Source: Escherichia coli (GTDB taxonomy: Bacteria; Pseudomonadota; Gammaproteobacteria; Enterobacterales; Enterobacteriaceae). From it: a stretch of 1,877 nucleotides of DNA. Each line of letters starts with the position of its first letter. Position 1 is the stretch's first letter. The stretch lies in the NCBI RefSeq assembly GCF_003334255.1, contig NZ_QOWU01000144.1. The stretch is one strand, 5' to 3'. Made by a program: the position numbers and the translations under genes. Positions 1-1,877 of the stretch are shown in pieces. The notes under the pieces are model-generated. The model worked only from the letters and a program-made list of their open reading frames with translations. It was not told the origin of the DNA and did no database searches.

Positions 1-55
1 AGCTGATAGAAACAGAAGCCACTGGAGCACCTCAAAAACACCATCATACACTAAA

Positions 56-823
56 TCAGTAAGTTGGCAGCATCACCGTTTCACTGGACATTATCCAGGC
101 ATAATTATGTAACAGGGTTAATGCCTGAAGCGGTTTTCTCTGCGCAAAATAAGTATCAACACACATCTGCATCAAGGGGTAATTATTATTTTCCTTTGTT
201 CCTCCAAAGCTAAGATCTAATCCTTGTTCTTTAATGCACTGAATCACAGGATCATCCTGGAAATTCGGGACATCTGCGGCCTGTGACAGCAAATGAATGA
301 CTTTATTGTCAGGAACACCAAATGCCCAATTGCCAAGATAAGCATTAAGCGCAGCCTGTGCTGCAGCTTCTGTTTTTTTACATCGGCGATACTGGATTGC
401 CAGTGCTAACCAATATTCGCTGACTTCAGGCAATTGTTCTGTTGCTCGCTGTAACAGTGGCAGTGCGTCATCAAGCCTTCCCGTTGAAAGACATTTCCGA
501 GCAACACGGAAGAGATTTGCTGCAAAGTCTTGATCTTCGATGCTGATGCCATTTTCATGGGGATCATCATCATTCACTTCCAGCCATTCTTCGAACTTCT
601 TAATGCTGGAAAAGGCAGGTACGATTCGCCATTCGTCATGGTACGTTTCGCACACTATAGGTAGTTTATGCTCCTGACCAATAGGCCAGTACAAACCGAA
701 ACAGTCTCCGTTACCATATGCTGCATCTGTAAGTACGGTAAATCCGTTCGGAGGAAAAGGCCCCGGGCAAATTCCATCAATGCCAGGTGAAATATCACTA
801 CTGCGAGGAATAAGTTTCATCAT
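56..823 (-). CDS. Hypothetical protein, 255 aa (254 aa if the second ATG at 820 is the start). N-terminal SUKH/SMI1-KNR4-like motif region plus helical TPR-like C-terminal half; candidate immunity-type protein.
   Basis: Complete ORF in the supplied six-frame track, and 255 stop-free codons is highly non-random in AT-rich DNA. An AAGGAA Shine-Dalgarno sits on the minus strand (forward 825..830). It is only 1-2 nt from the first ATG (821..823) but 4-5 nt from the second ATG (818..820), so the second may be the true start. The product begins MMKLIPR and contains GNGDCFGLYWP ... YHDEWRIVPAFSSIKKFEEWLE, followed by a helical segment DDALPLLQRATEQLPEVSEYWLALAIQYRR. The family resemblance is from memory only. 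Confidence 0.8.
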   Translation of the reverse strand: MMKLIPRSSDISPGIDGICPGPFPPNGFTVLTDAAYGNGDCFGLYWPIGQEHKLPIVCETYHDEWRIVPAFSSIKKFEEWLEVNDDDPHENGISIEDQDFAANLFRVARKCLSTGRLDDALPLLQRATEQLPEVSEYWLALAIQYRRCKKTEAAAQAALNAYLGNWAFGVPDNKVIHLLSQAADVPNFQDDPVIQCIKEQGLDLSFGGTKENNNYPLMQMCVDTYFAQRKPLQALTLLHNYAWIMSSETVMLPTY

Positions 824-878
824 GTTCCTTCACATAAAAATTTATGTAAACATCCGCTTATCTGTTTATATAAATGTT
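824..878 (-). promoter_or_regulatory. Short AT-rich spacer between the two co-oriented minus-strand genes, carrying palindromic elements and the SD of the downstream gene.
   Basis: The inverted repeat ACATAAA-aa-TTTATGT at 832..847 lies immediately upstream of the SD (forward 825..830). A perfect 10-bp palindrome TTTATATAAA is at 865..874, and TTTATGTAAA (841..850) is a near-direct repeat of it. From the lines I sampled, this spacer looks like the most AT-rich stretch in the window. Confidence 0.3.
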
Positions 879-1301
879 TTAATCCCACCAACAAGTAACC
901 GGATGCATACCCACAGGGACTTCAACCCATCCATGCTCCGTATCTTCTGACCATCCTTCCCAGCACTCATCAGGGGCAATTTCTTCTACAAACCAGCTCT
1001 GAACTTCTTCTGGTGAAGCAGTGGTGATAACTAAAATACTTTCACTAAAGGGCCAGTCTGGGTCATCGAACATCGTAATTTCTACCAAAACATCACTAAC
1101 ATTGTTACGCTCACGTATTTTCAGAAAATGGTGATAGATAGCTTGCGGAGATTGTTCTGGAATCACATTGCAACATATTGAACCATGGATATTATTGTCA
1201 ATAAAAAAATCCTCAAGAGATAACAATGGACGAGGAGTATCAGGATTATTAACATCACCATTGATATTAACAAGTTGGGTAATGCGTTCTAAAGGTGTCA
1301 T
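879..1301 (-). CDS. Hypothetical small acidic protein, 140 aa from the preferred start (the track ORF extends to 1355, giving 158 aa). Trp-rich C-terminus; function unknown.
   Basis: The ORF track gives 879..1355. The in-frame ATG at 1299..1301 is preceded on the minus strand by AGGGAA (forward 1307..1312) with a 5-nt spacer, whereas the ATGs at 1353..1355 and 1326..1328 have no purine-rich SD. The product from the preferred start begins MTPLERITQLVNINGD and ends CWEGWSEDTEHGWVEVPVGMHPVTCWWD. By hand count it has about 26 Asp/Glu against 5 Lys/Arg. The TAA stop is at 879..881. Confidence 0.75.
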   Translation of the reverse strand: MTPLERITQLVNINGDVNNPDTPRPLLSLEDFFIDNNIHGSICCNVIPEQSPQAIYHHFLKIRERNNVSDVLVEITMFDDPDWPFSESILVITTASPEEVQSWFVEEIAPDECWEGWSEDTEHGWVEVPVGMHPVTCWWD

Positions 1302-1509
1302 AATTATTCCCTGAAATAATATATTCATCAAACGAATGACATTGTTTGAATTCATTAGCAGATAAATAGTGACAATTCCATACGTATTATTAGTTTCAAG
1401 AGCATCATAACATGAATGTTAAGCAGGAAAACGTGAGATATTCAGTCAGGCCGGGTCGTTATCCAGACGTTGTTATATTTAATATCATAAATATTTAAAG
1501 GGGTTTGAC
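1302..1509. promoter_or_regulatory. Divergent AT-rich intergenic region, presumed to carry the promoters for both the minus-strand gene pair and the plus-strand gene.
   Basis: A 208-bp non-coding gap lies between divergently oriented starts (1301 minus, 1510 plus). Weak sigma70-like hexamers are present: plus-strand TTGTTA at 1470..1475, and on the minus strand TTGAAA (forward 1394..1399), TTGTCA (forward 1370..1375) and TATATT (forward about 1318..1323). None has convincing -35/-10 spacing. An inverted repeat TCAAAC-N10-GTTTGA lies at 1328..1349. Confidence 0.45.
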
Positions 1510-1877
1510 ATGGAATGGTTAAGTGAAATTCGTAAACTTCGGAAGAACGTACCTGTCGGTATCCAGGTTGCCAGACGTTTGTTAGAGAGGACTGGCGGTG
1601 ATGTTGATGAAGCCATCAAGTTGTTTCATATTGACCAAATCAATATATTGACGGCAAAAGCAGACGTCACTCATCAGGAAGCAGAGAATGTTTTGTTGGC
1701 TACAAACTATGATATTGCAGAAGCTCTTCGGCGTATTGATGAACAACGCTATACACTGACGGAATTGATTTTGCGTAAAAATAAGGATGCCGGAGATGCC
1801 GGTAATGACTCCAACTTATTGATAGTGTTTTATGTTCAGATAATGCCCGATGACTTTGTCATGCAGCTCCACCGATT
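1510..1877 (+). CDS. Hypothetical protein, 3'-truncated by the window edge (at least 122 aa). N-terminus is a tandem repeat of a ~30-aa EF-Ts-N / UBA-like helical module.
   Basis: The ATG at 1510..1512 is the first in-frame ATG after an in-frame stop at 1480..1482. It is preceded by AAAGGGG (1497..1503) with a 6-nt spacer. The frame stays open by manual translation to the window end: MEWLSEIRKLRKNVPVGIQVARRLLERTGGDVDEAIKLFHIDQINILTAKADVTHQEAENVLLATNYDIAEALRRIDEQRYTLTELILRKNKDAGDAGNDSNLLIVFYVQIMPDDFVMQLHR. It is absent from the ORF track, presumably because it has no stop in the window. Confidence 0.75.
   Translation, partial: MEWLSEIRKLRKNVPVGIQVARRLLERTGGDVDEAIKLFHIDQINILTAKADVTHQEAENVLLATNYDIAEALRRIDEQRYTLTELILRKNKDAGDAGNDSNLLIVFYVQIMPDDFVMQLHR

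Follow-up and report, generated by a model that had tools for sequence, protein, structure and literature searches.

The yfbP-yfbO-yfbN region of Escherichia coli is probably an old, AT-rich chromosomal module that most E. coli have lost and that, in the 1,877-nt stretch of DNA analysed here (the window), is cut by IS1. The region is accessory and strain-variable. Its low GC is real: it characterises the three genes as well as the entire elaD-yfbP block to which they belong, and marks DNA of a foreign compositional type. We infer that the direction of change was loss rather than gain, and that the acquisition was ancient, because diverged AT-rich copies share the rbn-nuoN interval in three other enterobacteria.

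Positions 77-1800 of the window are 100% identical to yfbP-yfbO-yfbN of K-12 MG1655 (K-12 stretch 26860-25137). The annotated gene order in K-12 is rbn-elaD-yfbK-L-M-N-O-P-nuoN, with the three genes sitting between yfbM and the nuoN terminator, beside the nuo operon. Both ends of the window are IS1 termini (Table 1): these were absent from the initial annotation and are the most concrete structural feature of the window. The matches to the left end fall on an annotated IS1 family transposase, and the remainder of that copy falls leftward, beyond the window. To IS1 yfbP loses its 3' end and yfbN its distal 60%, and yfbO alone is left intact. The yfbP' reading frame lacks the last 105 nt of the gene (full YfbP is a 282-codon TPR protein), has 7 IS1-encoded codons appended and stops at 56-58. 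Codons 1-97 of the 238 of yfbN, the tandem UBA-like part, occupy 1510-1800, after which the frame runs into IS1 with a predicted chimeric product of 123 aa; a 123-aa gene is called at the same position on another contig. The divergent intergenic region presumably holds the promoters of both yfbO and yfbN; promoter-like matches in 1302-1509 are not more frequent than in shuffled sequences, and promoter- and terminator-like sites in the window as a whole occur at chance level only. A scan of the window found no tRNA, no Rfam match and no meaningful repeats.

Table 1. Features of the window (positions 1 to 1,877)
Feature	Position	Strand	Remarks
IS1 terminus, insA-proximal inverted-repeat end (IR 55-77) and first insA codons	1..77	-	77/77 identical to annotated 768-bp IS1 end (reference locus 10710-10786)
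yfbP', cut by IS1	56..820	-	codons 1-247 of 282 at 78-820
yfbO-yfbP intergenic spacer	824..878	.	25.5% GC
yfbO, intact, 140 codons, YfbO family (Pfam PF27222)	879..1301	-	40.2% GC, GC3 30.5%
Divergent yfbO/yfbN intergenic region	1302..1509	.	31.2% GC
yfbN', cut by IS1	1510..1877	+	100% identity to K-12 yfbN up to 1800
Second IS1 copy, first 77 nt, opposite inverted-repeat end (IR 1801-1823)	1801..1877	-	77/77 identical to other IS1 terminus (reference locus 10019-10095)

By exact count the window (1-1877) has 40.8% GC, and the hand counts of four lines in the initial annotation are all exact: 41.7% at 1-60, 45.0% at 361-420, 30.0% at 841-900 and 33.3% at 1441-1500. GC spans 28% to 53% by 60-nt line and 30.0% to 46.5% in 200-nt windows, where 50% is never reached. 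The description of this GC as uniformly low is borne out in that every part of the window lies below the level of the host; it is loose in that the coding parts have 40-44% and the spacers at 824-878 and 1302-1509 only 25.5% and 31.2%. The host, supposed to be an enterobacterium of about 50% GC, is one of about 51%, the core of the window being 100% identical to E. coli K-12. The background was ~93 kb of K-12, made up of 50 kb sampled elsewhere in the genome and the local 50-kb neighbourhood minus the elaD-yfbP block; its 876 windows of 1723 bp have a mean GC of 51.2%, an SD of 3.4% and a minimum of 41.0%. Against it the window core, at 40.7%, has z = -3.1, and none of the 876 windows is as low. 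The GC3 values of yfbN (36.0%), yfbO (30.5%) and yfbP (36.7%) are all below that of each of 63 background genes (mean 54.9%). The codon adaptation index (CAI), with 17 ribosomal-protein/rpoA genes as the reference set, is 0.35 for yfbN, 0.45 for yfbO and 0.39 for yfbP versus a background mean of 0.50, which puts yfbN and yfbP near the bottom of the background and leaves yfbO unremarkable. The exact comparison with the host proposed at the outset thus finds the region deviant. The deviation extends over the elaD-yfbP block of K-12, with 41.6% GC versus 52.5% in the surrounding 43 kb and a step from 41.6% to 58.8% at the nuoN boundary; elaD, at 35.4%, is below its yfbN/O/P neighbours.

The rbn-nuoN flanks occur in all 5426 complete E. 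coli genomes, in coverage classes of 100, 74, 59, 58, 55 and 44% of the interval. The yfbP-yfbO-yfbN region occurs in 1012 of the 5426 (19%), a count that depends on megablast sensitivity in a collection skewed to clinical isolates; it is found on the chromosome only, at one place in nearly all. The copies are at least 99% identical in 983 of the 1012, and 1000 genomes are at least 99% identical across the whole interval. The 74% coverage class has elaD without yfbN-O-P, and in O157:H7 genomes just 55% of the interval is covered. Comparison with APEC O78 delimits a 2,561-bp segment (39.8% GC) that is missing from other strains with clean boundaries: it begins directly after the yfbM stop codon and ends immediately short of the nuoN terminator. 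At the empty site APEC O78 carries 17 bp of unrelated sequence, without a repeat. The locus is therefore not core genome and the host does not share its composition, the two points on which the initial annotation had staked its proposal of an acquired region.

Diverged relatives of the module lie in the same interval both within and beyond E. coli. In strain A42 yfbO is 92.9% and yfbN 85.2% identical, versus 97.3-97.7% for nuoM/N, and the YfbN allele classes within Escherichia lie at 87, 85, 79 and 71%. E. fergusonii has the order nuoN-yfbN-orf191-yfbM, with yfbN at 78.5% nucleotide identity and 39.5% GC and with nuoL-N 96-97% identical to K-12. Superficieibacter has yfbL-yfbP-yfbN-nuoN: here yfbP (68.6% nucleotide identity, 46.3% GC) and yfbN (66%, 44.9% GC) stand between flanks of 53-61% GC, and the 69-71% identity of rbn, yfbK and yfbL resembles the 66-69% of yfbP/yfbN. 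Another enterobacterium has rbn-yfbK-yfbL-yfbO, with yfbO at 70.8% nucleotide identity versus 68-70% for the flanks and at 40.9% GC versus 51-59%. In these three genomes the homologues have diverged about as much as the flanks, or more, an argument that is partly circular because in E. fergusonii the rbn, elaA and elaB flanks too reach just 76-84% identity to K-12.

On these comparisons rbn-nuoN has probably long been variable in Escherichia and its relatives, with a small AT-rich gene pool (elaD, yfbK, L, M, N, O, P, a cheW/response-regulator gene and a SUKH-like ORF) kept there in differing combinations. The acquisition would be ancient and the AT-richness would have persisted; yfbN-O-P would since have been deleted from most E. 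coli lineages, the module being retained by the K-12-like haplotype and by the more diverged haplotype of strain A42. The K-12-like clade may instead have gained the module through recombination with a different Escherichia lineage, and the whole interval may have been exchanged horizontally among enterobacteria. The maintenance of GC3 near 30-37% across inter-genus timescales does not fit simple amelioration and counts against a reading of old residence.

A recent horizontal acquisition is unlikely. In that case the ancestor of the K-12-like lineage, probably phylogroup A, would have taken up a 2.5-kb low-GC islet from an AT-rich donor, inserted between yfbM and nuoN. The low GC and GC3, the restriction to a fifth of the genomes with near-identical copies, the clean indel, which leaves other strains with an intact 'empty site', and the patchy phyletic spread of YfbO/YfbP would all follow from such an event. 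However, the copies at least 99% identical track the K-12-like haplotype that those 1000 genomes carry across all of rbn-nuoN, which fits clonal inheritance, and strain A42 carries a diverged allele. The homologues in the same interval of E. fergusonii, Superficieibacter and the other enterobacterium argue against it further, orthologues at the same site in outgroup species being already partly observed. Signs of mobility are also wanting: the window has no tRNA, nor does the annotation of the surrounding 50 kb in K-12 show one; the K-12 neighbourhood has no integrase/recombinase or self-mobility genes, no Rhs/CDI element and no prophage; the indel boundaries in the APEC O78 comparison have no flanking direct repeats; and a search for a phage carrier gave no match. 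The single E. coli plasmid match proved to be a chromosomal fragment and was set aside as evidence of plasmid carriage. Of the classical marks of a genomic island, the locus thus has deviant composition and codon usage and strain-variable presence, and lacks a tRNA/att site, an integrase and direct repeats. The proposal of a horizontally acquired accessory island stands as to low GC and accessory status; its hallmarks are absent, including those sought in the flanks, and recency is unsupported given the diverged homologues at the same site.

That the genes are not foreign at all is also improbable. They would then be native, vertically inherited enterobacterial genes, their AT-richness would stem from selection or weak expression (examples being nucleoid-protein binding, or fast-evolving binding proteins rich in AT-coded residues), and the present pattern would reflect deletions only. 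Synteny in three or more genera, in each of which the GC stays low, and the absence of mobility signatures accord with this. On the other hand, the YfbO/YfbP families are missing from most Enterobacterales and yet have homologues scattered over unrelated phyla (Planctomycetota, Thiobacillus, Arachnia, Bacteroidota, Janthinobacterium), a distribution to be read with the species-level contig scan having used one peptide pattern and the family being under-sampled. Moreover, YfbO sits at a different locus, after trpS, in a Budvicia-like genome, and it is GC3, the position least constrained by the protein, that deviates most. A 100% match in Bacillota was discarded as E. coli contamination.

What the three proteins do bears on a further reading, in which rbn-nuoN has long been a hotspot for conflict genes in Escherichia and its relatives: the SUKH-like ORF together with YfbM, N, O and P, as fast-evolving, non-enzymatic proteins, would be shuffled there, AT-richness would be selected (e.g. 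by nucleoid-protein silencing), and YfbN/O/P would form an unrecognised phage-interaction or orphan-immunity module. We regard this as doubtful; if confirmed, it would assign a function to three orphan genes of E. coli. Several observations hint in its direction: yfbO mutants are reported in published work to be N4-resistant, a published retron screen has yfbN/yfbO among those found, the alleles diverge more than their flanks, and a stand-alone YfbP N-domain is found on conjugative Providencia plasmids. The literature offers no established function for yfbP, yfbO or yfbN, and that on DUF1877 nothing relevant. The YfbO product of the window is identical to that of K-12, and PF27222 is precomputed on nearly all of its homologue clusters; an alignment of 18 diverse members has 14 invariant positions, and YfbO has no match to a known fold. 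Searches of solved structures by sequence gave no significant match for YfbP, YfbO or YfbN, and in Pfam these three have only the TPR of YfbP and a weak UBA-like match in YfbN (UBA_4, E = 0.003). The 'immunity-like gene content' read into the window by the initial annotation went unsupported: YfbN and YfbO lack any Pfam Imm/SUKH domain, none reaches significance in YfbP, and YfbP, YfbO, YfbN and YfbM have nothing meaningful in NCBIfam and no matches in PADLOC. A SUKH assignment for the YfbP N-domain, prompted by a GNGD..LYWP motif, was rejected as unproven: just one of 24 family members hits SMI1_KNR4, and weakly (E = 0.036), and hhalign against the SUKH-like ORF of E. fergusonii gave a probability of 0.1%. 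No toxin linkage (Rhs, CDI, T6SS effector) or tandem immunity paralogs were found, the K-12 neighbours being nuoN, yfbM, yfbL, yfbK, elaD and rbn, and the E. fergusonii and Superficieibacter loci, like the more distant ones inspected, have no genes of this kind. Our best guess, drawn solely from the published screens and the fast evolution, is that YfbN/O/P are non-enzymatic binding proteins (TPR, UBA-like) acting in phage or inter-bacterial conflict.

The IS1 ends belong to a different layer of the history. Both copies have the same orientation and are hence direct repeats, bracketing 1,723 bp; 21 of the first 30 positions of the termini pair as inverted repeats. When IS1 inserts, it duplicates 8-9 bp of its target site on either side; in the window the inner flanks are GTTTCACTG at 78-86 and GGAGATGCC at 1792-1800, and the outer flanks lie beyond it. 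The copies are particular to this strain and interrupt yfbP and yfbN rather than bounding the 2,561-bp indel. The chimeric YfbP'::IS1 product occurs only on contigs of < 2 kb from draft assemblies (among those with the chimeric ORF are GCA_965136505.1, ERR271233 and ERR1948968), one contig being common to 19 samples, and every contig with this junction breaks inside IS1. Given how abundant IS1 is in Shigella, these contigs may come from there. It is because of the IS1 insertions that the short contig ends 77 nt into IS1 on each side, and we infer that the window is an assembly-contig fragment. An in-situ insertion at yfbP/yfbN is assumed, and the insertions would represent later, secondary gene decay in one lineage. 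It is very unlikely that IS1-yfbP'-yfbO-yfbN'-IS1 is instead a composite transposon of the Tn9 kind, or a translocatable unit, and has carried yfbO to a new location: the paired direct IS1 copies reproduce the Tn9 architecture and neither junction is present in the 5,426 complete E. coli genomes, but the core is chromosomal in every complete genome and nearly always single-copy, the sole 'plasmid' match lies in nuo context, and other IS1 insertions and IS1-associated deletions are common in situ elsewhere in the rbn-nuoN interval.

The biology of the region is ordinary, that of already annotated K-12 y-genes, and low-GC strain-specific segments are textbook in E. coli. The case matters in two ways. 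Low GC with strain-variable presence does not imply recent acquisition; composition alone overstates recency, because the yfb module stays AT-rich at one chromosomal site across several genera. Further, when short contigs end in equal stretches of an IS they are fragments of an assembly, and apparent gene truncations on them should be read accordingly.

Several known systems invite comparison. In Tn9 two direct IS1 copies surround a DNA segment; the window likewise has exact IS1 termini in direct orientation at both ends with a short segment between, but without evidence of movement and without resistance or other selectable cargo. The orphan immunity clusters of polymorphic toxins, with the SUKH/Imm families described by Zhang/Aravind, resemble yfbN/O/P in consisting of small, fast-evolving, AT-rich, strain-variable, non-enzymatic proteins, and the E. 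fergusonii interval carries a borderline SUKH-1 ORF; unlike them, the yfb locus is without a toxin, Rhs, CDI or T6SS neighbour, Imm/SUKH domains in YfbN/YfbO or tandem paralogs. Within the same interval, elaD is a strain-variable gene absent from phylogroup B2 that encodes a deubiquitinase (PMC1847702, PMC12575377). Like the yfb genes it varies among strains, and its GC is even lower; in contrast to YfbN/O/P, ElaD has a known activity, and the patterns of presence and absence are independent. Comparable too are the 'K-islands' that Perna et al. in 2001 reportedly recognised as K-12-specific segments in the comparison of K-12 with O157:H7: the yfb segment too is short, chromosomal, present in K-12, absent from O157:H7 and many strains, low in GC and made up of uncharacterised y-genes. 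Apart from the additional IS1 cuts in the window copy, it differs from them in having diverged homologues at the same site in other genera, and is therefore no lineage-specific novelty.

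A megablast search of 5,426 complete E. coli genomes shows the three genes of the window to be yfbP, yfbO and yfbN; yfbO alone is intact. K-12 MG1655 matches positions 77-1800 at 100% (0 mismatches in 1,724 bases), and its gene order at this locus is rbn-elaD-yfbK-yfbL-yfbM-yfbN-yfbO-yfbP-nuoN. The matches to both window ends in these genomes lie under IS1 annotation. Since the two ends share one orientation, they point to two directly repeated IS1 copies around 1,723 bp: the left one has cost yfbP its final 105 nt, and the right one cuts yfbN past codon 97 of 238.

Features of the window and their coordinates
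Feature	Position	Strand	Remark
IS1 terminus, left	1-77	same orientation as right terminus	100% identical to one of the two opposite ends of an annotated 768-bp IS1
yfbP (truncated) ORF	56-823	-	255/254 codons; ORF listing
Spacer	824-878		25.5% GC
yfbO	879-1301	-	140 codons, intact; ORF listing
Spacer	1302-1509		31% GC
yfbN (truncated) ORF	1510-end	+	start at 1510, runs off the window end; ORF listing
IS1 terminus, right	1801-1877	same orientation as left terminus	100% identical to one of the two opposite ends of an annotated 768-bp IS1

Neither the yfbP/IS1 nor the yfbN/IS1 junction was found in the complete E. coli genomes. The YfbP'::IS1 chimera (254 aa) is recorded only on draft-assembly contigs of 1.77-1.97 kb, one in 19 samples; the same contig has a YfbN'::IS1 gene call of 123 aa. 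The window, which ends in exactly 77 nt of IS1 on either side, would most simply be a whole short-read contig that broke in the IS1 repeat. The architecture would allow a Tn9-like composite transposon, though there is no support for movement of the unit. IS1 events elsewhere in the rbn-nuoN interval are common: E. coli 2017.15.02CC has an IS1-associated deletion running from inside yfbP to beyond elaD (L003, its locus, 9041-9800), and in ECCWS199 an IS1 is inserted further into yfbN (L001, its locus, 10019-10786), alongside an ISVsa5 insertion. These events are independent; insertion sequences often target this interval.

The initial annotation had taken uniformly low GC to suggest a horizontally acquired island, provided that the host has about 50% GC. 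Its four hand counts proved exact on recount, and the window as a whole has 40.8% GC. Every 200-nt window is below 50%, and all of the stretch is below the host level; 'uniformly' is nonetheless too strong, as the GC of single 60-nt lines runs from 28% to 53% and that of the spacers is 25% and 31%. The core, that is the 1,723 bp between the IS1 ends, has 40.7% GC (z = -3.1) against 876 K-12 windows with a mean of 51.2%, an SD of 3.4% and a minimum of 41.0%. Codon usage deviates likewise: GC3 of yfbN, yfbO and yfbP is 36.0%, 30.5% and 36.7%, against a mean of 54.9% for 63 K-12 genes, none of which is as low. The CAI values, with ribosomal-protein genes as the reference set, are 0.35, 0.45 and 0.39 in the same order against a K-12 background mean of 0.50; by this measure yfbO is unremarkable, and yfbN and yfbP rank close to the lowest background values. 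The low-GC tract exceeds the window: the 7.25-kb elaD-yfbP block has 41.6% GC versus 52.5% in the other 43 kb, and at the K-12 nuoN boundary GC jumps from about 42% to 59%. The two spacers are the most AT-rich parts of the window, and promoter-like matches in them do not exceed the frequency seen in shuffled sequence.

The core without its IS1 ends is present in 1,012 of the 5,426 complete genomes, chromosomal in every case and at one place in nearly all carriers; 983 of the 1,012 copies are at least 99% identical. The rbn-nuoN flanks occur in all 5,426 genomes, the complete K-12 layout in only 933; in the others, coverage of the interval is 74, 59, 58, 55 or 44%, in classes that vary in the presence of yfbN-O-P, elaD, yfbK and yfbL. 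The locus is thus both accessory and compositionally deviant: the host is neither equally low in GC nor matched in codon usage, and the locus is not conserved core. Relative to APEC O78, the K-12-specific segment comprises 2,561 bp of 39.8% GC, from the first base past the yfbM stop codon to just short of the nuoN terminator hairpin; APEC O78 has 17 unrelated bases in its place, and no repeats flank the segment boundaries in this comparison. Carriers of a core at least 99% identical are about as many as the genomes whose whole interval is at least 99% K-12-like (1,000), which fits clonal inheritance as one haplotype.

None of the proposed hallmarks of an island is present. The window has no tRNA and no Rfam match, the 50-kb K-12 context has no integrase, Rhs/CDI or prophage genes, and no phage carrier of the yfbN-O-P module was found. 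A lone E. coli 'plasmid' hit was rejected: this 365-kb record (CP137936.1, L033; E. coli 2023CK-00004 'plasmid unnamed1'), filed as non-mobilizable, holds yfbP through yfbK, elaD and rbn, has nuoJ-N through rbn in chromosomal order, and is probably a mis-filed chromosomal segment. A 2,776-bp contig of a 'Bacillota bacterium' MAG (JAEWTL010000023.1, L009) is 99.8% identical to K-12 from the yfbM end to the nuoN end, and is E. coli DNA binned into that MAG. Its ends lie about 115 bp (yfbM side) and 100 bp (nuoN side) outside the 2,561-bp indel, as expected if module-bearing and module-less strains were co-assembled.

Relatives at the same site suggest that the module has a history there, against a recent arrival as an island. 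In E. coli A42, which lacks yfbP and elaD, yfbO is 92.9% and yfbN 85.2% identical, and nuoM and nuoN are at 97.3-97.7%. E. fergusonii has the order nuoN-yfbN-orf191-yfbM, its yfbN being 78.5% identical with 39.5% GC, and within Escherichia YfbN falls into allele classes of 87, 85, 79 and 71%. In Superficieibacter sp. HKU1 (yfbL-yfbP-yfbN-nuoN), yfbP and yfbN have 46.3% and 44.9% GC versus 53-61% in the flanks, and their nucleotide identity to K-12 (66-69%) is like that of rbn, yfbK and yfbL (69-71%). Another enterobacterium has rbn-yfbK-yfbL-yfbO, with yfbO at 40.9% GC versus 51-59% in the flanks and 70.8% identical versus 68-70%.

The side of the interval away from nuo is unusually diverged overall between E. 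fergusonii (L032) and K-12 (L005): nuoL-N are 96-97% identical, and rbn, elaA and elaB only 76-84%, such that the whole interval may be exchanged among enterobacteria, a caveat to reading the module as an ancient acquisition. In A42 (L029), elaA is only 82.7% identical to K-12 next to elaB at 99.0% and menF at 96.3%, which looks like a sharp local allelic replacement. The 191-aa ORF between yfbN and yfbM of E. fergusonii (CP079884.1; L032 7712-8287) gives a borderline SMI1_KNR4/SUKH-1 match (i-E = 0.0013). The K-12 yfbM-yfbN spacer (L005 24455-24716, outside the window) aligns with about 272 nt of the ORF at 75.6%, and hence seems to be what is left of this gene after decay.

Beyond this site, YfbO (Pfam PF27222 by precomputed annotation) and YfbP are very patchily distributed, in keeping with genes of foreign type. 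YfbO is present in E. coli, E. albertii and Budvicia and, farther afield, in Planctomycetota, Thiobacillus, Sulfuriferula, Arachnia and Rhodobacteraceae; in distant genomes it is a single gene amid housekeeping genes, and in a Budvicia-like genome it follows trpS, a different locus. YfbP is present in Leminorella and Superficieibacter and, again farther afield, in Bacteroidota, Janthinobacterium and Iodobacter. On a Providencia rettgeri plasmid (NZ_CP098041.1; L034 3907-4254), a 114-aa hypothetical protein with no Pfam match adjoins a Tn3-family transposase and shares 55% identity across 69 aa with the N-terminal beta-domain of YfbP (window ~567-773, - strand). Such a protein is also found on 23 other Providencia/Proteus/Morganella conjugative plasmids; the domain thus also circulates on MOBH conjugative plasmids, be it as a protein in its own right or as a truncated YfbP relative.

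The best synthesis would be an ancient acquisition of yfbN-O-P into the variable interval, where the AT-richness of the module would have persisted, with differential loss among lineages; we infer loss, as against gain, as the direction of change. Of the initial reading, the GC observation and the accessory, compositionally foreign character stand; the region is probably old, and has neither island machinery nor demonstrated immunity content. Genes and phenomenon alike are already known.

The 'immunity-like' content is not supported: SMI1_KNR4 is matched in only 1 of 24 YfbP family members (E = 0.036), hhalign against the borderline SUKH-1 ORF of E. fergusonii gives a probability of 0.1%, and there is no toxin gene near the module. 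The Pfam matches are limited to TPRs at residues 96-167 of YfbP and weak UBA-like ones in YfbN, with none in YfbO; NCBIfam and PADLOC searches gave nothing meaningful, and by sequence none of the three proteins has a relative among solved structures. Published screens offer hints, with no mechanism, of a phage-related role: K-12 with yfbO and yfbL deletions is reported to resist phage N4, and complementation was shown (bioRxiv 10.1101/2025.09.29.679331), and yfbN and yfbO were flagged in a retron toxin/antitoxin overexpression screen (bioRxiv 10.1101/2020.06.22.160242).
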